From IMG/VR virus record IMGVR_UViG_3300048999_000192, positions 32,001 to 96,000 of that record: a DNA stretch of 64,000 bases; one strand, given 5' to 3'. The position numbers were made by a program, and so were the translations under genes. This DNA comes from a virus. Below are positions 10,783-32,030 of the stretch, one piece after another; the first letter of the stretch is position 1, and each line of letters opens with the position of its first letter. The notes under the pieces were generated by a model. The model saw nothing but the letters and a program-made list of their open reading frames with translations, was not told where the DNA came from and did no database searches.

Positions 10783-11703
10783 TTGAATCACAAGCTGCTG
10801 CGTGAGCTCTTCCGCCATCTCCAGGCCTTCAAGGCACTGTTCGAGAACGAGGGCGTCGACAGCATCACCTCACCTACGGGCGAGGAATACTTCCTCTACG
10901 ACATCGACTACCTCTACGAGTGCACCCAGACACGCGTACGGCTGACCCCCGTCTCACCCCCCGAATACCTTCTCTCCCCCCGGCAGCGCCAAGCCATTGA
11001 GCTGTTCCTCTATTGCAACATCCGCGAAAAGGATGTCGCAGTGCTCATGGGCGTCTCGGATACGAATCCGATTGCGATCTACGCCACGCAGGGGCTGAAC
11101 AAATTGTGCGCCCTGATCAACTCTGGCCAGTTGAGCCGTTATCGGCCTGTGCTCGATGGAGGGATGGAACATGCGAATTCGCTATGGGGTGAACCAGCCG
11201 CTGGAGGAGATGGCCAACGAGCTGATCCGCCAGTCGCTGGCCGGGGTGACGGCCCGCTCAGCGAAGGCGGACATCCTGACGCCATGGAAGGAACGCGACC
11301 GTCTGAGCCGCGAGGTCTACAACTCGTCGGGCACGGTCGACCCGGCGACGCGACGGGGGATGTACCACCGCGCGTGGAATTCACAGCACTCCCACCTGAA
11401 CTCACGCGATGGCGTCGCGCCCCCGCGCCGGATCCCGACGGGACTGGCGGAGTTCGTGGACAAGGAGTGGCCGTCGAACCCGTTCTGGCCGGACGACCCG
11501 AGCCCGCAGGAATAGATCAGCGCCTTTACCGGCTCACCATTCGCTGGGGCAAGCAGGTCCGGCTGAAGTGCGCCCAGTGCACCAAATACATCAAGGGCGG
11601 CGCGGAGGGGCATCTGCACTGCAGTTGTGGCTGCGCCTATCGTCAGGTCCAGGACGACTATTACGAGATGATCGAGGTGGACCGTGACGCAGCCGTCGCG
11701 TGA
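10783..11703 (+). CDS. Sigma-70 region-4-like HTH protein with a read-through C-terminal Zn-ribbon
   Basis: LSPRQRQAIELFLYCNIREKDVAVLMGVS; C-terminal CAQC...CSCGC; the middle overlaps another gene. Confidence 0.65.
   Translation: MNHKLLRELFRHLQAFKALFENEGVDSITSPTGEEYFLYDIDYLYECTQTRVRLTPVSPPEYLLSPRQRQAIELFLYCNIREKDVAVLMGVSDTNPIAIYATQGLNKLCALINSGQLSRYRPVLDGGMEHANSLWGEPAAGGDGQRADPPVAGRGDGPLSEGGHPDAMEGTRPSEPRGLQLVGHGRPGDATGDVPPRVEFTALPPELTRWRRAPAPDPDGTGGVRGQGVAVEPVLAGRPEPAGIDQRLYRLTIRWGKQVRLKCAQCTKYIKGGAEGHLHCSCGCAYRQVQDDYYEMIEVDRDAAVA
11171..11515 (+). CDS. Hypothetical protein nested in an alternative frame of 10783-11703
   Basis: ATG with upstream GGAGGG; globular-looking sequence with normal codon bias (REVYNSSGTVDP..GMYHRAWN). 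Confidence 0.65.
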   Translation: MRIRYGVNQPLEEMANELIRQSLAGVTARSAKADILTPWKERDRLSREVYNSSGTVDPATRRGMYHRAWNSQHSHLNSRDGVAPPRRIPTGLAEFVDKEWPSNPFWPDDPSPQE

Positions 11704-13938: not shown

Positions 13939-16038
13939 ATGGCCCTAGCTTCCCGATCTCCCCTGGTCCAGTCCGCGACCACAAAGCGGCGTAGCAAGCT
14001 GCCCCCGGCCGGGCCGGTAGAGGTCTTCCAGTGGTTCCACGGGGTGCAGGTCCCCGACCCGATCACCTTCGTGGTCGGGGAGCAGTGGCTGAACAGGCCG
14101 AATCTGTACCCGCGCCAGGCCACCATGCTCAAGATCATCTTCCTGCGGGATGACCTGTTCACCGCCTATGACCATGCCGTCATCCAGGAGTGGATCGAGG
14201 AGTTCGACCCCAAGACCAACCCCGAGGGCATCCAGCCGGACGTCTACGAGCGCATCACCCAGCTCAAGGCCGAGGGGCGGCGGTGGTTTCGCGAGGTGCT
14301 GCTGGCCGTCGGCCGACGCGGTGGCAAGGGCTACATCTCCGCGCTGGCCATGGCCTACATCCTGTGGTGCTACATGGCCAAGGGCGACCCCCAGGACTAC
14401 TACGGGATCGACCGGGACAAGAAGCTCACCCTGCTGGTGTTCGCGGGCAAGCGGACCCAGGCCAAGGAGAACCTCTGGCGCGACGTCTACAACGTGATCA
14501 CCGGCGGCCCCTGCTTCGGCCCGTACATCAACAACGCCACCACCGAGAACCTGACGATCTACGCCCCGCACGACTTCGTCCGGATCAAGGAGCTGGAGGA
14601 CCGGGGGATCTCGCCAGCGATCGACATGGCGACCTTCCAGGTGCTCCCCCGCGAGTCGACCAGCCTGGCCGGTCGAGGCCCGGCCTCCTTCATTCTCGGC
14701 TTCGACGAGATGGCCCACGTGGTCAAGGCCGTTGCCAAGGCCGACGCCGGGGAGGTCTACGACGGCGCGACACCCAGCCTGGACCAGTTCCGGCAGGACA
14801 GCTTCATCGTGGCCCCCAGCTCGACCTGGCAGATGCTGGGCAAGTTCTACGAGCTCTGGGAGCTCTCGCTGGAGACCGATGACGAGACCGGCGAGGCGCT
14901 GTACCCGGAGAAGCTGATGATCCAGCTCTCCTCCTGGGGCCCGTACATGGACTGGGAGGACGCCCACCGGATCCCGTTGTTCCCCGCCGACTTCCAGGGG
15001 GACCAGGGGGAGTACGTCGAGGTCAAGCACCCCACTCTCAAGCAGCTCAAGGGGCCGGTGCAGGCCTACGACGCCCAGATGCGCCGGGAGGAGCGGGCCA
15101 ACCCTGACACCTTCCGGGTCGAGCGTCTCTCGCGCTGGGCGACCGCGCTGGACGCCTACCTGAACGAGCGCAAGGTGGACGCGATCTTCGACCCCTGGCT
15201 GGGGCGGCCGGAGGAGTACGGGCGTGCCGACCTGCGCATGCAGTCCAAGGGCCTGCTGGTCACCACGTACAAGGCCCATGGGGACCCGGCGGAGGTCAAC
15301 TGCAGGTTCGGTTTCGCGGTCGCGCACGAGGAGATCGTCTGGACCAAGGACGAGAAGAATCGCGACGTCCCGGTGGCGCATGCGGTCTTCGACCTGATCC
15401 ACCACTGGGACCCGGCGGACTTCCCGGATCACACGATCGACTATGACGAAGTGCTGGACTGGATCTGGGACAAGGTCGTCACCAAGTTCCACCCCGAAGA
15501 GCTGACGTTCGACCAGTTCAACAACGTCGCCACGATCCAGCGGCTGCAGAAGAGGGTGCGCGGCACCCGGCTGCCCAAGCGGGTCAGCGTCGAGGAGAAG
15601 ACGGCCACGGCCCAGCTCAACTGGACCCGCTTCGAGCAGTTCAAGGCCGCCATCAACATGGGGCTCGTGCACGCCCCGCAGTACGACTTCGCCCAGCAGG
15701 AGCTGAAGTTCCTCACTAAGCCGGACGGCACCAACCGGGTCGACCATCCGACCAGCGGTCCGGTCCAGACGAAGGACATCGCCGACTGTATGGTGGAATG
15801 CGTACATGTCCTACTCGGGGAGCAGATGAACAACTTCCTGAACAAGGACCTGCGCGGCTTCGGCCTGCCGGGCAGCATCCCCGGCGGCGTCGACCCGATG
15901 CGGCACATGGACGGCGGCGAGCACCGGACACCCCAGGAGGCACTCTCGGGGTTCTCCCGGGCGCGAGGTGGCGGGAGGCCCCAGGGTGGCGGCTACAACC
16001 GCCCGCGCGGCCCAGGCCGCCGGGGCGGAAGGTACTGA
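13939..16038 (+). CDS. Terminase large subunit
   Basis: Walker A VGRRGGKG, Walker B ILGFDEMAH, nuclease-domain HGDPA, FDQFN and KDIAD. Confidence 0.9.
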   Translation: MALASRSPLVQSATTKRRSKLPPAGPVEVFQWFHGVQVPDPITFVVGEQWLNRPNLYPRQATMLKIIFLRDDLFTAYDHAVIQEWIEEFDPKTNPEGIQPDVYERITQLKAEGRRWFREVLLAVGRRGGKGYISALAMAYILWCYMAKGDPQDYYGIDRDKKLTLLVFAGKRTQAKENLWRDVYNVITGGPCFGPYINNATTENLTIYAPHDFVRIKELEDRGISPAIDMATFQVLPRESTSLAGRGPASFILGFDEMAHVVKAVAKADAGEVYDGATPSLDQFRQDSFIVAPSSTWQMLGKFYELWELSLETDDETGEALYPEKLMIQLSSWGPYMDWEDAHRIPLFPADFQGDQGEYVEVKHPTLKQLKGPVQAYDAQMRREERANPDTFRVERLSRWATALDAYLNERKVDAIFDPWLGRPEEYGRADLRMQSKGLLVTTYKAHGDPAEVNCRFGFAVAHEEIVWTKDEKNRDVPVAHAVFDLIHHWDPADFPDHTIDYDEVLDWIWDKVVTKFHPEELTFDQFNNVATIQRLQKRVRGTRLPKRVSVEEKTATAQLNWTRFEQFKAAINMGLVHAPQYDFAQQELKFLTKPDGTNRVDHPTSGPVQTKDIADCMVECVHVLLGEQMNNFLNKDLRGFGLPGSIPGGVDPMRHMDGGEHRTPQEALSGFSRARGGGRPQGGGYNRPRGPGRRGGRY

Positions 16039-16222
16039 CTGTCGCGATGGTTGTTTCGAGGGCGGCGGTCTGGCATGGTAATCGGGTCGTCAGCGGTGGG
16101 TGAGCCGGGTCTCTGGCGGGACCTCTCAGGCCCCGAGATGGCCTCTCAGCGGTCCCGTCGGCTCAGGCGACTCCAATCCGGCGGGACCGCCTTCCTTGGC
16201 ATCGAGCTCAACGGCTGGCGAC

Positions 16223-16438
16223 GTGACCTCTGACAACCGCCCTGCGTGGGAGTACCTCTGCGACCTGTGCGGTCACTCCCACCCGCTCCACCGGAACGGC
16301 ACTTCCCGGTGCAGGGCCATGGGGTGCAAGGCAGGCCCGAACGAAACTCCCTGTCCCGGCTTCATCGTGAAACCCGACGAGATAGGTGAACCCAATGCCC
16401 GTACGGCTTCCGGTCGGCGGACCCCGCGCTCTAGCTGA
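16223..16438 (+). CDS. Small Cys/His-rich hypothetical protein
   Basis: CDLCGHSHPLH...C...C...CPGF. Confidence 0.5.
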   Translation: MTSDNRPAWEYLCDLCGHSHPLHRNGTSRCRAMGCKAGPNETPCPGFIVKPDEIGEPNARTASGRRTPRSS

Positions 16439-16601
16439 GCACCTGGCCGATACCGAGCTCCCGGACCTGCGCCCGGCGGACATCGAGAATGACATCCGCC
16501 GCCACCCGCGCATCTACTACGTGGACTACGCGGCCCTGTGCGCCACGAAGAAGACCGAGCCCCTCTCGGTGGGCGTCTGGGTCGACCTCTGCATCGGCTG
16601 A
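16395..16601 (+). CDS. Hypothetical protein
   Basis: AGGTGA RBS-like site, short ORF. Confidence 0.5.
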   Translation: MPVRLPVGGPRALAEHLADTELPDLRPADIENDIRRHPRIYYVDYAALCATKKTEPLSVGVWVDLCIG

Positions 16602-16637
16602 GCTGTCAGCGGCTCTCCTGCGGCGCTGAAGAGGTGA
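16602..16637 (+). promoter_or_regulatory. Candidate late promoter GCTGTC-N20-GAAGAGGTGA
   Basis: Same motif and spacing at 55333 and 63606, each just upstream of a putative late gene. Confidence 0.55.
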
Positions 16638-16653
16638 ACCAGGGGAGGTCCAG

Positions 16654-16809
16654 GTGGCGATCGTGCGCAAGGTGCGGGTCCGGGCACCGCGAGGCAAGGA
16701 GCCGTGTGCCGACTGCGCGGCCGACGGCTGCGAGACGTGCGACAAGACCGGCTTCCTCCCGGCCGGGTCGGCCCCGGCACGACGACGCTCCTGGAGGGCG
16801 GCTCGGTGA
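16654..16809 (+). CDS. Small Zn-finger protein (MAIVRKVR...CADC...CETC)
   Basis: GGAGG RBS, GTG start, GTGA overlap with the giant ORF; absent from the ORF track. Confidence 0.55.
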   Translation: MAIVRKVRVRAPRGKEPCADCAADGCETCDKTGFLPAGSAPARRRSWRAAR

Positions 16810-19800
16810 GCGACTTCGACTTCTCCCACGAGGAGATCAACACCGGAGGGACGAAGTACCCGACGAGGGTGCATCTGCGCGCCCACCACCCGGACGGCTC
16901 GGACGCCGGGTCGATGCACTACTTCCCGCCCAAGCGCAAGGGCAGCCCCGTCACGGTGGACACCCTGCCTCACGGTGACGACCGCGCCCGGGGAGCCGGG
17001 TCGGCCTTGCTGGATGAGATGGAGCGCCGCCACCCGGGCTCCCGCGTCGTCTACATGGACGAGCTCCACGAGAAGAACAAGCCGAAGCCGGGCGATCCGA
17101 ACTTCAACGCCAACCGCGACTACGGCCTGCCGACCGACTGGGAGCACCACTTCCCCAAGCTCCCCGGCCAGATCCACCGGGGGATGGGCGTCCGGCTGGA
17201 CAAGTACACCGCCGGGGACATCAACAGCGGGGACATGCCCTCGGGCGACCAGGCCAAGATCCTGCGCGGCGCGATCGAGAACGGCGGCCCCGGCGGCATG
17301 CACTGGTCGGCGGACGAGTCCAAGTCCCACCAGTTCGCTCACCGGAACGTCATCGACCCCCGTACGGACATCCCCGTGGTGCTGCACGCCCGTACGCCAG
17401 GGCTCAAGGACGTCGAGACGCGTCCTGACGTGCTGCGGAACAAGGGCGTCTGGCCGCACGACCACATCTCCGGCGACGCTGAGGTGCCGATCCGCAAGAA
17501 GCGGCCCGTCCACATCACCGGGATCTCCTGGCTCCCCGACGCCGACCACCCGGAGGCGGACGAGCACGGGTGGGTGCACCACACCTTCGCCGAGCCGCTG
17601 GTGCACAACGCGTCCCAGGGCTTGGCTCCAAGGATTCTGGGGAATACACTGGGTGAAAGCCACGAAAGGGGCCGTAATGAGCACCGAGCAGGGCGGGGGA
17701 AGCCTCGTCATCGTGTCCAGCCGGGAGCTGGCGACGATTCTGGCCGAGCGGGAGAGCTCGGGGGAGACGCCGGTGACGTGGGAGCAGGTCAAGCAGCAGA
17801 ACGGCCTGTGACCTTCCACCCTCAGGCGGCCAAGGAGTTCGGCAAGCTCGACGGGCAGACCAAGCGCCAGGTCCAGAAGACGATCGACGCGCTGTCCACC
17901 GGCCAGCCGACCCAGACCCACTACCTGGACGCCCCGCTGAAGGGCTGGCAGGGCACCAAGGCCTCGCGCGGCCACCGGATCGTCCACAAGGACACCGACG
18001 ACGGGGGCCTGCACATCGGCTACGTCGGCCTGCACGACTACGAGAAGGCCGAGCGCCGCCTGGGTGCCCGCGAGCCCTTCGAGTTCGAGTACGCCCGCAA
18101 CACGATCCCGGCCCCAAAGATGCCGGGCGACGTGTACGGCCAGGACATCGAGCCCCACGGCCGGTATATGACCGTGCGCTCCCAGCCGGGCAACTACGTC
18201 GACAACGAGCGCATGAAGTGGGAGTTCGGCCAGCACCGCTTCGAGAACCCGCTGCACCTGGACGCCGAGGGCTGGAAGCAGCACCTCTCCGACATGCACG
18301 GCGGCAAGACCGGCCGGGAGCTCTCGCAGGCCGTACGGGACGCCGGGCACGACGGCATCGTCACGCATGAGACCTGGCGCGGCCAGCGCACGCCTGGCGA
18401 GATCGTCGACCTGACCGGCTTCAAGCGGCGCAGCAGGCTGGCGCGTACGGCGGCCGACGATGATGACGACTACCGCATGCAGCACCGGCCGCCGGATGCC
18501 GACTTCGGGGCTCCGCATCACGATCTGACCCAGATCCTGCCGGACGACGTCTACACCCACCCGCAGTACTACGACCCGAACGGTCAGGGCGGTGACTGGC
18601 ACGACCGGAAGACGTTCCAGGACTCTTACCACCAGATCCAGCGGACGCGGGACAAGCCGGAAGCTAAGGTCAAGATCTACCGATCCCTCCCGGCCGAGTA
18701 CGCCCATCAGGGCTTCCGTCCCGGCGACTGGGTGAGCACCTCTCGCGACTATGCGATCGGGCACGGCAAGCACCACGCCGACTCCAAGCACGACTGGCCG
18801 GTCATCTCCACCTCGGTACCGGCCAAGCACCTGCAGACCAGCGGTGACGACCTGCGCGAGTGGGGCTACACCGGCCCGCACAAGGAGTGGCCCGCCGTCT
18901 CGCACAAGGGCGGCTATCACCAGGAGATCCGCCAGCGTGCCGACGGCACCATCGCGCCGGTGAAGCGCCGTGCGCCCAAGGAGGCCGCCGACCGGGCGCT
19001 GTTCACCGAGAAGCAGCCGGAGGACATGCGCAACCAGGGCGGCACCGACTGGGACCGCGTTCACCCCACCCTGCCGCCGACTGTGCACCGGGGCGCAGGC
19101 TTCCTGCTCTCGCCCAAGGACCACGCCTACGTCCATGACGCCTCGATCCCGGCGGCCGACCGCGCGCACCACCTGATCGGCCTGATGAAGGGCAAGGCCT
19201 ACTCCGGCGGCATCGGCAAGCACTGGAGTACCGACCCGTGGGTGGCGCATCACTTCGCGGCCAATGAGGCCGGGCGCAACAGCGACGCCTACGAGACCGA
19301 AGCGCCGGACTACAAGTGGGGCACCGACGATGACGGTGACCCGAAGTGGCGGCCCGCCACGATGGTCATGCTGCACGCCAAGACCCCGGCTCGTGCCGAC
19401 CTGGACGAGACCCACCACGACGTCTGGGGACGCGGCGTCGACTACGAGACCCACCACGAGAAGGAAACGCCGGTCATCGCCGGGCGGCCGGTCCACGTCA
19501 CCGGCATGTCCTGGGGTACCGAGGATGATCCCGCGCCGGATGATGACGGCGAGCCCCAGACGCTCTGGCAGCACCACGAGGACGACTACGACGGCCCGGC
19601 GGACCCGCCGCAGCACGCCTACCCGCATCGCCACACCTTCCCTGGCGGGCAGGCCCACACCGCGACCTGGGAGGACGAGACGTACGCGGGCTGGGAGCCG
19701 CACCAGCGCGCGGTCTCTGAGGCCCAGGAGGCCGTACGGGCCGAGCACCCGTACCTGACCGCGCCGCTGCCGGACTCCATGAGCGAGCGGGACGAGGAGC

Positions 19801-22604
19801 TCCGCAAGGTCCTGCGCCACGGCGGCCACCCGCGCGCCGACGACGCGTACGTCCACATCCACCGCGACCCGAACCGGAGCAGCTCCAACTCCGGCATCAG
19901 CCGGGAGACCGGCGCGCCCATCGTGAGCCTGCACCCGAGCCGGGCCGATCGCGGCACCATCACGCACGAGGCCGCGCACATCCTGAACGACCACGACCAC
20001 GGCAGGCAGGTCAACGAGGAGGCCCCGGACCACTACGTCCACGGGATCGGCTTCGCCCAGCACTACGCCCGCATGCTGCAGCCGTACGGGCCCCGCACGA
20101 CGCCGGGCGGCAACTACAAGCCCGGCGCGGGCGACCTGTTCCTGAACACCTACTACCGCTCGCTGGCCAAGCAGAACCGGGGCTTCGCCCACACCGCCGC
20201 CCGCGCCCTCCCGACCGACCGGATCTTCGGGCCGACGTACGGCCTGGACCATCGGCTGTTCAACGGCGAGGTGATCCGGCCGGAGGTGCGCAAGGCGGTC
20301 ATGGACCGGCTGGACGAGGTCTTCCGGGTGACCTCGGGCCTGCTCGACTGGTCCTCCTACATGCGCGTCTACCTGGCGGGCTCGGAGGCGAGCGAGTGGA
20401 CCAGCCCGACGCTGGAGGGCAACAACGACTTCGACACCTTGATCGGCGTCGACTACGACCAGGCGCGGGCGCACCGTGACGACAACTTCCTGACCATGAC
20501 CGACGGGGAGATCGACGACGTCCTGAACGACATCCTGCGCCAGTTCTACAACGACGAGGACTGGCAGGCCCCGTTCGGCGGCGTCTGGCACCTGACCGGC
20601 TACGTCAACCCGGACGCCTACGACATCCGGGACATCAAGCCGTACGCCGCCTATGACCTCTCGGACAGCCGCTGGGCAGTCAAGCCACCGCACCTGCCCT
20701 CCTGGGGCCCGGAGAGCTTCCCTGAGGGCCCCGCGCTCTGGCATGAGGCCTCGGCCGTCGCCGACTACATCGAGTCCATCCTGGAGCTCCCAGAGCCGTA
20801 CAGGACCCAGCAGGGCGGGGCGCTGTACGACCACCTGCACTCCGACCGGCACCGGGCGTTCGGGCCGAACGGCGAGGGCTGGTACGACCCGGGCAACGTC
20901 ATCGAGAAGTACCTGGACCAGCTCGGTCTGTGGGCCAAGCTCCTGCACCTGAAGAAGAACGCCGAGCACGGGGCCTACGACCCCGGTGAGCAGCCGATGC
21001 TGGAGGCGACGGCGCTGAGGGTCTATCACGGCACGTCGGCGGAGAACGCGGCCAAGATCAAGCACGAGGGCCTGACCTCACCGGTCTACGACGAGACCCA
21101 CAACACCCTGTCCGAGAGCCGGAGCCAGGCCCTGGAGCTGGCCCGGCGCCGGGGGCGTCAGGACCCGGCGGTCGTGGCCTTCGACGTGCCGGACGAGGCC
21201 GTCGGTGAGCACCTGCACCCGCCGTACGAGTACTGGGGTGGCAGCGGGGTGGCCAACACCTACGCCCTGCGCAAGCCGCTCCCGCCGCACTTCGTGGCCA
21301 CGGCCAAGGTGGCCAACTCCGACGGCGACGACTGGATGGAGTGCGACCAGGGGCACGAGCACTGGGGCACCAACGGGGCGGCCGGTCTGCTCCTCCGCCA
21401 CCACGACCCCGAGGACGGCAAGACCAGGTACCTGCTGCAGAAGCGCTCCCCGTGGGTCGACCACCCCGACACCTGGGGGATCCCCGGCGGCGCGCTCGGC
21501 CACGGGGAGCACCCGCTGAAGGGCGCGTTCCGCGAGGGGATCGAGGAGCTCGGCACCCTGCCGCCGGGCGTCCGCCGGAGCCACACCACCACCGACGACC
21601 ACGGCGGCTGGGCCTATCACACGGTGGTCGCCGACAGCCCGGAGCGCTTCGAACCCGGCGGCGGCCAGGACGACCATGAGAGCGACGGGCACGGCTGGTT
21701 CACGCACGGGGAGATGCAGGACCTGCCGCTGCACCCCGGCTTCGCCAAGAGCTGGGACCGCGTCCGCACGAGCCACCCGGGCAACAGCACGGTGCATGCG
21801 GCCAGCCACCACTGGATCGCCAACGAGCACAACCTGCGGGGGCCGGGGGAGCTCGAAGACGAGGACGAGGCCCCGGCGTACTTCCATGGTGACCGGGAGA
21901 GGCGCAACGGCCACTTCGATCGGGCCTGGGACCACCTGCGGCCGGAGCAGCACGAGAACATCCGGAAGAACCTGAAGGCGCTGTCCGCCAAGAAGATGAT
22001 CGTCGGCACCAACCATGCCGCCGAGATCTTCGACCACGGGCAGATGAAGACCCTGCACGAATACGATCCCCACGAGCGGACGGCGGGCTACCTCTTCGAC
22101 CGTAAGGCGCTGGAGCGCCACGTCCTCGGCGTGCCGGAGAGCACCAACCCCGACCAGCAGCCGATCTACGGGTCGATGCACGATGATCCGGTCGAGAACA
22201 ACTACGGCCGCTACAAGCTGGAGCTCAAGCCGCATGTGCGCGCCCGCGCCGGTGTCACCATGGGGGACTCGCTCAACGAGAAGCTCCGGGGTTACCACAT
22301 CGACCATGTGCCGCACCTCAGCCATGCGGAGATGAGGGAGATGGTCGAGCCCACCGAGCTGATCAACCTGGCCGAGAACGAGAAGCCCAAGTCCTACATG
22401 GAATTCCAGGTCCACGGCGGGATCGGGGTCCATGACATCGCGAAGCTGCACGTCCATGAGGATCACGGCAGGCCGCTGACAGAGAAGGATCACCAGGTGA
22501 TGGACAAGGCCCGCGATGCGGGGGTCGAGGTGGTCCACCACAAGCCGGACCCGAACTTCGGCCTGACGGATGATCAGGTCGCGACGCTGAGGGGGCACCG
22601 ATGA
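16806..22604 (+). CDS. Giant multidomain (polyvalent) effector protein: GNAT, ART-like domains, RelE, HExxH peptidase, nucleotidyltransferase, Nudix, DUF3626-like
   Basis: RARGAGSALL; HRG..HWS..xxE twice; RelE-like FHPQAAKEFGKLD; NPL..GHDGIV; YR..PGDWVSTS; HEAAH; LAGS..DFD; YHGTS; Nudix box GALGHGEHPLKGAFREGIEELG; PIYG..YG..GDS..EFQVHG. Confidence 0.85.
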   Translation: MSDFDFSHEEINTGGTKYPTRVHLRAHHPDGSDAGSMHYFPPKRKGSPVTVDTLPHGDDRARGAGSALLDEMERRHPGSRVVYMDELHEKNKPKPGDPNFNANRDYGLPTDWEHHFPKLPGQIHRGMGVRLDKYTAGDINSGDMPSGDQAKILRGAIENGGPGGMHWSADESKSHQFAHRNVIDPRTDIPVVLHARTPGLKDVETRPDVLRNKGVWPHDHISGDAEVPIRKKRPVHITGISWLPDADHPEADEHGWVHHTFAEPLVHNASQGLAPRILGNTLGESHERGRNEHRAGRGKPRHRVQPGAGDDSGRAGELGGDAGDVGAGQAAERPVTFHPQAAKEFGKLDGQTKRQVQKTIDALSTGQPTQTHYLDAPLKGWQGTKASRGHRIVHKDTDDGGLHIGYVGLHDYEKAERRLGAREPFEFEYARNTIPAPKMPGDVYGQDIEPHGRYMTVRSQPGNYVDNERMKWEFGQHRFENPLHLDAEGWKQHLSDMHGGKTGRELSQAVRDAGHDGIVTHETWRGQRTPGEIVDLTGFKRRSRLARTAADDDDDYRMQHRPPDADFGAPHHDLTQILPDDVYTHPQYYDPNGQGGDWHDRKTFQDSYHQIQRTRDKPEAKVKIYRSLPAEYAHQGFRPGDWVSTSRDYAIGHGKHHADSKHDWPVISTSVPAKHLQTSGDDLREWGYTGPHKEWPAVSHKGGYHQEIRQRADGTIAPVKRRAPKEAADRALFTEKQPEDMRNQGGTDWDRVHPTLPPTVHRGAGFLLSPKDHAYVHDASIPAADRAHHLIGLMKGKAYSGGIGKHWSTDPWVAHHFAANEAGRNSDAYETEAPDYKWGTDDDGDPKWRPATMVMLHAKTPARADLDETHHDVWGRGVDYETHHEKETPVIAGRPVHVTGMSWGTEDDPAPDDDGEPQTLWQHHEDDYDGPADPPQHAYPHRHTFPGGQAHTATWEDETYAGWEPHQRAVSEAQEAVRAEHPYLTAPLPDSMSERDEELRKVLRHGGHPRADDAYVHIHRDPNRSSSNSGISRETGAPIVSLHPSRADRGTITHEAAHILNDHDHGRQVNEEAPDHYVHGIGFAQHYARMLQPYGPRTTPGGNYKPGAGDLFLNTYYRSLAKQNRGFAHTAARALPTDRIFGPTYGLDHRLFNGEVIRPEVRKAVMDRLDEVFRVTSGLLDWSSYMRVYLAGSEASEWTSPTLEGNNDFDTLIGVDYDQARAHRDDNFLTMTDGEIDDVLNDILRQFYNDEDWQAPFGGVWHLTGYVNPDAYDIRDIKPYAAYDLSDSRWAVKPPHLPSWGPESFPEGPALWHEASAVADYIESILELPEPYRTQQGGALYDHLHSDRHRAFGPNGEGWYDPGNVIEKYLDQLGLWAKLLHLKKNAEHGAYDPGEQPMLEATALRVYHGTSAENAAKIKHEGLTSPVYDETHNTLSESRSQALELARRRGRQDPAVVAFDVPDEAVGEHLHPPYEYWGGSGVANTYALRKPLPPHFVATAKVANSDGDDWMECDQGHEHWGTNGAAGLLLRHHDPEDGKTRYLLQKRSPWVDHPDTWGIPGGALGHGEHPLKGAFREGIEELGTLPPGVRRSHTTTDDHGGWAYHTVVADSPERFEPGGGQDDHESDGHGWFTHGEMQDLPLHPGFAKSWDRVRTSHPGNSTVHAASHHWIANEHNLRGPGELEDEDEAPAYFHGDRERRNGHFDRAWDHLRPEQHENIRKNLKALSAKKMIVGTNHAAEIFDHGQMKTLHEYDPHERTAGYLFDRKALERHVLGVPESTNPDQQPIYGSMHDDPVENNYGRYKLELKPHVRARAGVTMGDSLNEKLRGYHIDHVPHLSHAEMREMVEPTELINLAENEKPKSYMEFQVHGGIGVHDIAKLHVHEDHGRPLTEKDHQVMDKARDAGVEVVHHKPDPNFGLTDDQVATLRGHR
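17622..17650 (+). promoter_or_regulatory. Internal promoter inside the giant ORF
   Basis: TTGGCT-N17(CCAAGGATTCTGGGGAA)-TACACT, same family as the intergenic promoters. Confidence 0.7.
17677..17811 (+). CDS. Overprinted 44-aa putative antitoxin
   Basis: GAAAGGGG RBS, ATG, C-terminal PVTWEQVKQQNGL typical of addiction-module antitoxins, GTGA overlap with the RelE domain start. Confidence 0.7.
   Translation: MSTEQGGGSLVIVSSRELATILAERESSGETPVTWEQVKQQNGL
17808..18065 (+). other. RelE/ParE-family toxin domain within the giant ORF (possible internal GTG start at 17808)
   Basis: VTFHPQAAKEFGKLDGQTKRQVQKTIDAL...HYLDAPLKGW...HRIVH. Confidence 0.75.
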
Positions 22605-24028
22605 GGATGGATCTCGGCGGCGGCCGGTTCGCTGACGTCCCGGACGGGGCCAGCCATCGCAGCCTGATCAAGGTGATCAGCCCGGACGGCGTCCACGAGG
22701 TGTCCTGGGGCGGTCTGCAGGGCCTGTCCAACGGGGAGCTACCCGCCCGCCGGACGCCCAAGACGGCCGACTACCACCTGCAGCACCGGGCGCCGGACGA
22801 GGAGTCCGGCAAGCCCCTGCACCACTACGAGGGCGGCGACGGGGATGAGCACGTCGACATCTACCGGGCCGTCCCTCACGATGTCCGGCACATCGAGCAC
22901 GACTCGTGGATCACCACCAACCCCGAGTACGCCCACCAGCACGCCCAGCAGTACGACGGGTCGGAATCCTGGCCGGTGCTGCATGCCAGCGTGCCCAAGA
23001 AGCACCTGTACTGGGACGAGAACGACCCGAATGAGCACGGCTACCAGGGGCCGGACATTCCCGAGGCCGACGTGCACGACGAGGAACACGGCGTCATCTC
23101 ACGGGACGAGCACGATGAGGCGCACCCGCAGCCGAGCGAGGAGGAGGCCGAGCGCGGCGGAGAGCACTTCCACGGCACCGCCGTGCACCTGCCACCGAGG
23201 GCGCACCAGATCGTCCACAACCCGAAGAAGCCCATGGACGTACGGGCGCGCGTGCTACTGGGTCACCTGCCCAAGGAGGTCCAGCACAACTCCGGGGGCC
23301 CGTGGGAAGAGGACGCCGACGACGCCGAGCTGGAGTCGATGAGCCAGGCCGACGACATGGGCCCGCACCCTGAGCACGGCACCCCACCGACGCAGGTCGT
23401 GGTGCACGGCAGTCCGTACGGCAGCAAACCGCACGGCATCTCCTGGGCGGACTCGGCCAAGGAGCCGCTGGTCTTCCACCGCGACTACGCGCACCACACG
23501 TTCGGCGGCAAGACGGCCAAGACTGCGGTGGACGCCACTGGCTCGATGATGGTCGCCTTCGTCCCGCCGAAGAACGTGATCGACCACCTCGTGCAGGAGG
23601 GCGGCGAGACGGCCGACGAGCTCCACATCACCCTGCTCTACCTGGGCAAGGAGTCGGCGTTCACGCCCAAGCAGGTCGCCCAGCTCCCCACCCTGGTGAG
23701 CCAGTGGGCCAAGGGCCAGCACCCGATGCAGGCCAACACCCAGGGTGCGGGCACGTTCATCAGCAAGGACAACCACAAGAACAGCCACGTCATGTGGGCC
23801 TCGGTGAACATCCCCGGGGTGACGCGGGCCCACGACGGCCTGGTGGACTTCCTGCGCGGCCACGGCCTGACAATCAAGGAGGATTTCGGGTACATCCCGC
23901 ATATAACCCTGAAGTATGACAAGTATCACGTCCGGTTCCTGCCCAAGGTCGAGCCCATGACCTGGGACATCACGCAGGTCTGGTTCTGCCGGGGCGATGA
24001 GTGGACACCGTACGTGCTAGGACGTTGA
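22601..24028 (+). CDS. Second multidomain effector: two ART-like domains plus C-terminal 2H phosphoesterase
   Basis: Paralogous DYHLQHRAP..IYRAVP..WITT..YA domain; two HITL motifs (LHITLLYLG, PHITLKY). Confidence 0.8.
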   Translation: MRMDLGGGRFADVPDGASHRSLIKVISPDGVHEVSWGGLQGLSNGELPARRTPKTADYHLQHRAPDEESGKPLHHYEGGDGDEHVDIYRAVPHDVRHIEHDSWITTNPEYAHQHAQQYDGSESWPVLHASVPKKHLYWDENDPNEHGYQGPDIPEADVHDEEHGVISRDEHDEAHPQPSEEEAERGGEHFHGTAVHLPPRAHQIVHNPKKPMDVRARVLLGHLPKEVQHNSGGPWEEDADDAELESMSQADDMGPHPEHGTPPTQVVVHGSPYGSKPHGISWADSAKEPLVFHRDYAHHTFGGKTAKTAVDATGSMMVAFVPPKNVIDHLVQEGGETADELHITLLYLGKESAFTPKQVAQLPTLVSQWAKGQHPMQANTQGAGTFISKDNHKNSHVMWASVNIPGVTRAHDGLVDFLRGHGLTIKEDFGYIPHITLKYDKYHVRFLPKVEPMTWDITQVWFCRGDEWTPYVLGR

Positions 24029-31971: not shown

Positions 31972-32030
31972 CCCTCTTGTCTCGATCGCGGTCAGATCGT
32001 CACATCTTGTTCCCGAACCGAAGGACGAAC

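Follow-up and report, generated by a model that had tools for sequence, protein, structure and literature searches.

Does a phage gene that encodes a RelE-like toxin domain as one part of a giant protein also carry, in another reading frame, the antitoxin of that very domain? The question is raised by the window analysed here, a stretch of 64,000 nucleotides (nt; positions 32,001 to 96,000) of the virus record IMGVR_UViG_3300048999_000192, itself a 155-kb IMG/VR virus, a soil phage, with 67% GC (guanine plus cytosine) and a CheckV completeness of 100%. In this window, a very long open reading frame (ORF), hereafter the polyprotein ORF, codes for a multidomain protein in which a RelE/YoeB-fold domain is directly preceded by a promoter-like site, a Shine-Dalgarno (SD) sequence and a small ORF, the polyprotein frame reading through all of them (Table 1). 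An earlier note, made from the letters alone, had described TTGGCT-N17-TACACT, a ribosome-binding site, a 44-codon ORF and its GTGA overlap with the toxin domain, and each of these elements was recovered at its position. As argued below, the small ORF is very likely a real and separately translated gene and, with a lesser degree of assurance, its product would probably be the cognate antitoxin (immunity protein) of the RelE-like domain.

Table 1. Coordinates in the window of the polyprotein ORF, the cassette and the elements they contain.
Feature	Position	Strand	Remarks
Polyvalent (multi-effector) protein ORF	16806-22604	+	About 1932 amino acids (aa); open frame extends back to 16704
N-terminal module	16806-17620	+	52-71% identical modules in many homologues; missing from the two nearest relatives, L003 and L004
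Sigma-70-like promoter candidate	17622-17650	+	-35 TTGGCT 17622-17627, 17-nt spacer, -10 TACACT 17645-17650
Polyprotein-frame read-through	17622-17807	+	G/R/A/P/D/E-rich linker, stop-free, open in every relative examined
Shine-Dalgarno-like GAAAGGGG	17664-17671	+	5 nt before ATG 17677
Small ORF, candidate antitoxin/immunity gene	17677-17811	+	44 codons, ATG 17677, TGA 17809-17811, +1 frame of the polyprotein
AGRGKPR motif	17688-17708	+	Polyprotein frame, over codons 4-11 of the small ORF
GTGA overlap	17808-17811	+	Small-ORF stop and GTG (Val) 17808-17810, first codon of the RelE-like domain
RelE/YoeB-fold domain	17808-18071	+	About 86-88 aa; residues 335-420 of the 1932-aa ORF (369-454 of the 1966-aa ORF)

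The existence of a second gene is first betrayed by base composition. When GC was computed per codon position in 35-codon windows along the giant ORF (1898 windows), the third positions of the polyprotein frame gave 0.94 +/- 0.048 outside the cassette, with a minimum of 0.80, vs. 0.43 inside, and the cassette was the sole dip of this kind. Read in the frame of the 44-mer, the same stretch exhibits about 0.66, 0.43 and 0.97 at the first, second and third positions, i.e. a normal coding pattern. Chance is a poor explanation, since AT-rich wobble positions would be unaccounted for in this genome if the linker were coded in the polyprotein frame alone. The small ORF is single-copy in the phage genome. 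Its product, modelled with AlphaFold2 (AF2) from 31 sequences, is predicted to comprise an extended N-terminus followed by helices at residues 15-28 and 35-41, with a predicted local distance difference test (pLDDT) score of 80, and the hydrophobic periodicity is retained over these 31 sequences.

The same arrangement was found in related DNA, which was compared across 12 distinct loci (L003/4, L005-L013 and L015), the GC pattern being tested in 11 of them. A +1 ORF of 43-56 codons stands ahead of the RelE domain in all 12, equipped with an ATG and a GGAGG-type SD located 5-10 nt upstream in 11 (L012 has a GTG only). Its stop codon overlaps the first RelE codon in 10 of the 12 loci, by way of GTGA in L003/L004 and of GTAG or GTAA in L005, L006 and L008-L011; it falls five codons earlier in L007 and three codons earlier in L015. 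The inversion of wobble GC was present in every locus tested (11/11), including one whose RelE domain is just 34% identical. At the protein level, the family combines a variable N-terminus with a conserved C-terminal core of about 30 residues (..HPE.E.E.L.R...G.KP.PWEQVK..LGL, or ..R..S.E.PV.WEQVK..(L/N)GL in another rendering). At E<=1e-3, a profile search against 1.8 billion representatives retrieved 27 small proteins that had been called as genes in their own right; of the 10 whose cluster records were looked up, seven are known only from contigs shorter than 2 kb, in which the long ORF is probably cut off. The check that the earlier note had proposed, namely conservation of both frames in related phages, hence speaks for both, as the +1 ORF is missing from none of the 12 loci and the polyprotein frame is open in all relatives examined.

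Besides its own start signals, the small ORF would possess its own promoter, from which transcription may start near 17657. The motif TTGnnn-N17-TAnnnT is found at identical spacing, 17-38 nt before the ATG, in seven distinct loci, with TTGACT-N17-TACTCT in L010 for instance. Read in the polyprotein frame, the -35 hexamer always supplies a Leu codon TTG, which the remainder of the ORF uses for only 2 of its 117 Leu residues, and further rare codons lie under the hexamers (AAT, 1 of 54 Asn; ACA, 1 of 101 elsewhere in the ORF). The first T of the -10 hexamer is the wobble base of AAT, AGT, CAT or GAT, so that the residue varies between N, S, H and D and the T is invariant; a rare wobble T kept under varying residues points to selection on the nucleotides rather than on the polyprotein. 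The earlier note had taken the site for a copy of the phage promoter, which cannot be upheld: no second copy occurs within the window, and a generic sigma-70 scan flagged no promoter in 16000-23000, the site falling below threshold. The reality of the promoter candidate rests on its conservation in relatives. The same note's proposal of a separately initiated second-frame gene is borne out by the SD, the ATG and this promoter-like site under nucleotide-level selection.

Regarding the domain into which the small ORF runs, its AF2 model (pLDDT 90.2) has the topology b-a-a-b-b-b-b-a, i.e. two N-terminal helices after a short strand, then an antiparallel sheet and finally a C-terminal helix, as in the compact BECR fold. 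The best Foldseek matches are YoeB (6l8e_E and 7bwf_A), YafQ, RelE and HigB, with a template modelling (TM) score of about 0.7 and a probability of 1.0, and the top 40 consist entirely of YoeB, YafQ, RelE and HigB structures (TM 0.6-0.74). A family profile of this domain searched against the PDB found YoeB at E=0.002. Matches to hidden Markov models (HMMs) are weak, namely PHROG 1213 'RelE-like toxin' (E=1.4e-3) and TIGR02385 (E=0.011); the curated thresholds are missed (16.2 bits vs. a cut-off of 27.9 for TIGR02385, 15.3 vs. 87 for YafQ) and the Pfam ParE, RelE and YoeB models gave no match at E<=1. The RelE-like label given in the earlier note consequently stands on fold and weak HMM matches and obtains no Pfam call. 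The motifs TKASRGHRIVH and GLHDY..A.RRL are unchanged in 10 relatives, in which H38, R54, H56, R57, H60, H76, Y78 and R84 are invariant, and profile alignment to YoeB of S. aureus sets GHRIVH opposite EHRLVY and TH opposite PE. The invariant residues may be counterparts of the Glu/Arg/His-Tyr catalytic set of YoeB, and the conserved motifs would fit an active RelE-like enzyme. Among relatives, the RelE domains have diverged to 34-70% identity.

The association between the two partners can be followed well beyond the loci compared as DNA. With residues 300-700 as query, 109 large homologues of 1081-3441 aa were retrieved, carrying GNAT, Arr-ms, ART-PolyVal and 2H domains. A RelE-like domain is present in 69 of them, starting anywhere from residue 1 to residue 2042, and is internal in about 65. 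Nearly every one opens with Val; the roughly 55 residues ahead of it are rich in G/R/A/P, include AGRGKPR and finish on ..R(P/S/A), and more than 60 homologues are open in the polyprotein frame through the cassette. Since the position of the RelE domain varies widely, yet the same linker nearly always precedes it, the cassette moves as a unit; by sequence comparison, it behaves as a mobile module inserted in frame. Two homologues (P0038 and P0050) have tandem RelE-like domains, the first with the usual linker and the second directly behind it without a cassette. In a 156,949-bp contig of Streptomyces sp. MH60 (L019), only the last 23 or so RelE residues (..LHIGYVGLHDYDKAINRL) are left at 2501-2569, fused behind an unrelated His-rich domain, as though recombination had left a scar; the contig is of phage size and belongs to a bacterial assembly.

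Is the small protein then the antitoxin of this domain? It fits a type II antitoxin by its upstream position, the overlap at the exact domain edge, the strict linkage to RelE, its size and its faster divergence (mean identity of 44% vs. 52%). As in type II modules, a small co-oriented gene adjoins the toxin through a stop/start overlap; the toxin is not the usual free-standing small protein since it is internal to the polyprotein. Complex prediction for the RelE domain with the small protein gave an ipSAE (an interface score) of 0.51 vs. 0.00 for the best control, the runs sharing at least 73% of contacts and the partner having a pLDDT of at least 65, which lends weak support to a predicted interaction. 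In the calibration of this prediction, 58 of 80 solved complexes and 2 of 110 mismatched pairs attained the mark, and scores of at most 0.60 came from only 7 of the 80 solved complexes plus both mismatches. Of the antitoxin role that the earlier note had assigned, position, linkage and this weak prediction remain, and homology to known antitoxins does not come with them.

Several points weigh against such a role. By sequence, the small protein belongs to no known antitoxin or DNA-binding family, be it ribbon-helix-helix (RHH), Phd/YefM, helix-turn-helix or AbrB, with empty searches of Pfam (31 members scanned), PHROGs, NCBIfam, PADLOC and PDB sequences. By structure, Foldseek returned no match in the PDB, and the nearest named Atlas clusters, DUF6290 (0.78) and RelB3_C/CopG (0.76), lie below the 0.8 level that counts. 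The weakness of the predicted complex belongs here too, and no antitoxin may be needed for a RelE domain that is confined within a protein of 1900 aa. The most distant homologue of the small protein (P0141, 61 aa; locus L014, 3001-3186) is separated by 172 nt from a GNAT-like gene (166 aa) downstream of it and adjoins a Prim-Pol gene, with no RelE domain nearby. The promoter-like site is absent from 4 of the 11 loci scanned. Finally, substitution patterns do not single out the small ORF: the ratio of nonsynonymous to synonymous differences (pN/pS) by the Nei-Gojobori method (NG86) amounted to 1.31 when read in the small-ORF frame and to 1.16 when read in that of the polyprotein, which leaves the two frames unseparated, in a test that lacks power at this divergence and third-position GC (GC3), as the RelE control itself reached only 0.82. 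Nor were the two frames distinguished by per-position entropy across the final 31 codons, and mean identities and BLOSUM scores are close between them.

Some of these points would be better accommodated if the +1 ORF were a real gene with another function, be it a small RHH-like protein that regulates the internal promoter, a chaperone or adaptor that helps the polyprotein to fold or to be packaged, or an effector in its own right. The missing homology to antitoxins, the RelE-free setting of the distant homologue and the weak complex prediction all go in that direction, and a strand-like N-terminus followed by two helices, as predicted, could form an RHH-like DNA binder. Against this stand the cassette linker that precedes nearly every RelE domain at any position of the polyprotein, the stop-start overlap exactly at the domain edge in 10 loci and the fact that no other polyprotein domain has such a companion, given that the GC3 dip is the only one. 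A function other than that of an antitoxin is regarded as unlikely, and the antitoxin remains the preferred reading.

The polyprotein frame across the small ORF has its own constraints. In the seven codons of AGRGKPR, entropy at polyprotein codon positions 1, 2 and 3 is 0.30, 0.33 and 1.34 over 11 loci, and such wobble-only variation signals purifying selection on the polyprotein frame, the wobble changes falling on second codon positions of the +1 frame. The pattern G[RK]G[KR]PR occurs 55 times in the 109 homologues and each of these occurrences (55/55) lies 37-52 residues before a RelE domain. The earlier note had described the giant frame here as a low-complexity linker, which is right as to its G/R/A/P/D/E-rich composition; it also holds this selected motif and is not merely passive. 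AGRGKPR could be a place of processing, an anchor for RNA or ribosomes, or a signal for packaging. A low-depth contig from another study carries A>G at 17700, which replaces K by E in the polyprotein and leaves the small protein unchanged. The lack of stop codons is uninformative alone, since the probability of a stop-free polyprotein frame, given the same small peptide and the codon usage of the phage, is 0.67 (one genome). Overprinting is nonetheless visible on both sides, with the +1 GC pattern and the kept ATG, SD and stop in one frame and the wobble-only variation of AGRGKPR in the other. As far as sequence can tell, this is true dual coding in a mobile cassette, and constraint is partitioned between the frames: AGRGKPR coincides with the variable N-terminus of the small protein, whose conserved core in turn falls on unconstrained linker.

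Selection on AGRGKPR, together with substitution-based tests that do not favour the +1 frame, could also mean that the +1 ORF is not translated and that the stretch is a mere linker, its odd composition being a relic of an old capture or the by-product of a nucleotide signal; the +1 frame of GC-rich genes is besides often open by chance, and in the window it stays open over 333 codons (16810 to 17811). A relic is expected to decay, yet the ATG, the SD and the position of the stop persist among RelE domains at 34-70% identity. A GC of 0.34-0.51 at polyprotein wobble positions, resembling that of second codon positions, likewise persists in all loci, and the small protein keeps its hydrophobic periodicity and its predicted fold. 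This explanation is therefore held to be very unlikely, in favour of a translated gene.

The long open +1 frame would equally suit recoding, in which ribosomes shift to +1 within the cassette and stop at 17809-17811, giving an N-terminal module with a small-ORF tail and no RelE; phages commonly derive two products from a single ORF. There is no sign of a slippery site, the conserved SD and ATG point to independent initiation, only about 20-45 codons separate the polyprotein-frame start from the small-ORF ATG in L003/L004 and L015, and +1-frame stops occur shortly upstream of the ATG in several relatives, which makes recoding highly improbable. Least credible of all is an annotation or assembly artefact, i.e. 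three genes (N-terminal module, antitoxin and RelE-first polyprotein) of which the first lost its stop to a sequencing error: gene callers do split the nearest relatives L003/L004 in this way and the polyprotein frame over the small ORF could be stop-free by chance as calculated above, yet the stretch 17595-17983 is identical in a contig from another sample and a contig from another study spans 17551-17815 with five substitutions and no indel, so that the junction does not come from assembly, and the homologues open through the cassette, the selection on AGRGKPR and the polyprotein-frame starts with SD ahead of the cassette in L003/L004 and L015 all tell against it.

As to the origin of the cassette, the earlier note had inferred an in-frame capture of a whole TA (toxin-antitoxin) operon; the cassette indeed travels with RelE as a unit and the polyprotein reads through it, and no free-standing ancestral TA operon was found in the small-protein profile, metagenome and genome searches. 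A nucleotide search of a phage collection gave only an unrelated 150-nt match, a search of viral contigs for related loci gave none, a metagenome search gave two, and a genome search yielded only the C-terminal RelE remnant in the Streptomyces contig and an unrelated TPR protein. A captured TA operon is a plausible origin. Gene callers split not only L003/L004 but also L015 into a small gene and a RelE-first polyprotein, and a free-standing antitoxin followed by a RelE-first gene was considered for L003/L004; it was dropped, as a polyprotein-frame ATG with an SD precedes the cassette. The 1598-aa RelE-first isoform (17808-22604) suggested in the earlier note has the required GTG in the window and in L003/L004, whereas most relatives have GTA, GTC or CTG there, so that it would be lineage-specific at best; more generally, the first codon of the RelE domain is not a start codon in most relatives, which sets it apart from type II toxins.

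As for the setting, the large terminase gene is located directly upstream of the polyprotein ORF. Counted from 16704, the latter would encode 1966 aa; on sequence features, its start is most likely GTG 16806, since this codon is GTGA-coupled to the stop of a Zn-ribbon ORF and is matched in position by an ATG in a relative. This 51-codon Zn-ribbon-like ORF (CxxC...CxxC) lies at 16654-16809 and is itself preceded by a conserved ORF of 68-71 codons (16386-16601); the same coupling is seen in L003/L004, but with ATGA. Within the polyprotein, Pfam recognises a Nudix domain, and other HMM searches gave ParB-C-like PHROG 2579, Nudix and KptA-like matches. One very large polypeptide, several unrelated effector domains, a packaging-gene neighbourhood and architectures shuffled among relatives match the polyvalent proteins defined by Iyer et al. 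(2017; PMC5512222), from the description of which packaging into the virion and delivery into the host can be presumed by analogy. A paralogue of the N-terminal module lies further down the polyprotein (about 19113-19646, residues 770-947 of P0003; 33% identity over about 180 residues), and the module is present up to four times in some homologues; it looks ADP-ribosyltransferase (ART)-like by eye, and relatives have Arr-ms and ART-PolyVal Pfam matches.

A second nested design is present in the same phage, where an ORF of 119 codons with its own ATG (11156-11515) is included in one of 306 codons (10783-11703). Over about 11143-11500, GC by codon position in the outer ORF is about 0.9/0.6/0.45, the +1 frame looks coding and the outer frame reads as a G/P/R-rich linker over the nested ORF, which suggests that this phage uses out-of-frame nesting more than once.

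Genes embedded in another frame are classical in phages, as with Rz1 inside Rz of lambda or E inside D of phiX174, where the small gene has its own start signals and both products are functional. Those pairs serve lysis or structure, unlike the present one, which would associate a toxin domain with its neutraliser in a mobile cassette and in which the promoter is read as codons. The type II RelE/ParE modules, such as YefM-YoeB, RelBE or DinJ-YafQ, share with this locus a small upstream gene, a 4-nt overlap, a RelE/YoeB fold and a promoter directly upstream. They differ in that the toxin is here one domain of a polyprotein of about 1932 aa, in that the antitoxin-like gene lies wholly inside it in another frame, and in that no resemblance of the small protein to Phd/YefM, RelB, DinJ or other antitoxins can be detected.

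Closer in architecture are the polyvalent proteins of phages and conjugative elements, which include BECR-fold RNase domains and which, like the present protein, combine ART-like, zincin, Nudix, GNAT, 2H and BECR-type RNase domains in one large chain, have head and packaging genes as neighbours and are extensively shuffled in their domains (Iyer et al., 2017; PMC5512222). The words 'overlapping', 'internal promoter' and 'self-toxicity' gave no hit in that paper, and its displayed passages on antitoxin, immunity and frame, which are not all of its matches, mention no immunity gene, internal promoter or second frame within a polyvalent gene. In fused TA proteins and multidomain BECR toxins, RelE/ParE-fold domains are also embedded in larger proteins, and many of the multidomain BECR proteins were left out of a recent survey because no antitoxin gene or domain could be identified (Gerdes, 2025; PMC11980606). 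The fusions described there are in frame, unlike the present candidate, which is out of frame and separately initiated, hence hidden from ordinary gene calling. Over the displayed text on polyvalent and multidomain BECR proteins, which covers part of the matches, neither an out-of-frame immunity gene nor an internal promoter turned up, and further literature searches found nothing similar.

Taken together, a conserved cassette of about 450 bp, in which a RelE/YoeB-fold domain follows a sigma-70-like promoter, an SD and a 44-codon ORF, sits in frame within a polyvalent-protein gene. In the polyprotein frame, promoter, SD and small ORF are read as a flexible linker with AGRGKPR, and then comes a RelE-like mRNA-interferase domain. 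The +1 frame would be translated separately in vivo from its own SD and ATG into a helical 44-aa protein, either after transcription from the internal promoter, were it active, or from the long mRNA. By binding and neutralising the RelE-like domain, this protein would protect the ribosomes of the cell that produces the polyprotein and possibly, later on, switch off the injected toxin. A self-immunised cassette acting as a timer can even be imagined, albeit as a doubtful extension: RelE, delivered with the virion and injected without its antidote, would shut off host translation until the incoming genome expresses the antidote from a host-type promoter buried in a late gene; the antidote would lift the block and shield the cell during synthesis of new polyprotein, with AGRGKPR as the site of RelE release or anchoring.

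Polyvalent proteins carry toxin-type domains, and how the producing cell is protected from them is not described in the literature searched. If the interpretation of the small protein as an antitoxin is true, an antitoxin-like gene lodged in the toxin's own ORF would answer this question as well as that of the multidomain RelE/ParE toxins seemingly devoid of antitoxin (Gerdes, 2025; PMC11980606). The small gene is invisible to standard gene callers and was called only where the long ORF had been cut. For a phage rich in GC, the locus is also an uncommonly clear example of dual coding, in which promoter, ribosome-binding site and gene would all be read as protein in one frame. With a second nested gene of like design in the same phage, the mechanism may be wider and, if it is general, out-of-frame immunity genes could account for multidomain toxins that seem to lack an antitoxin.

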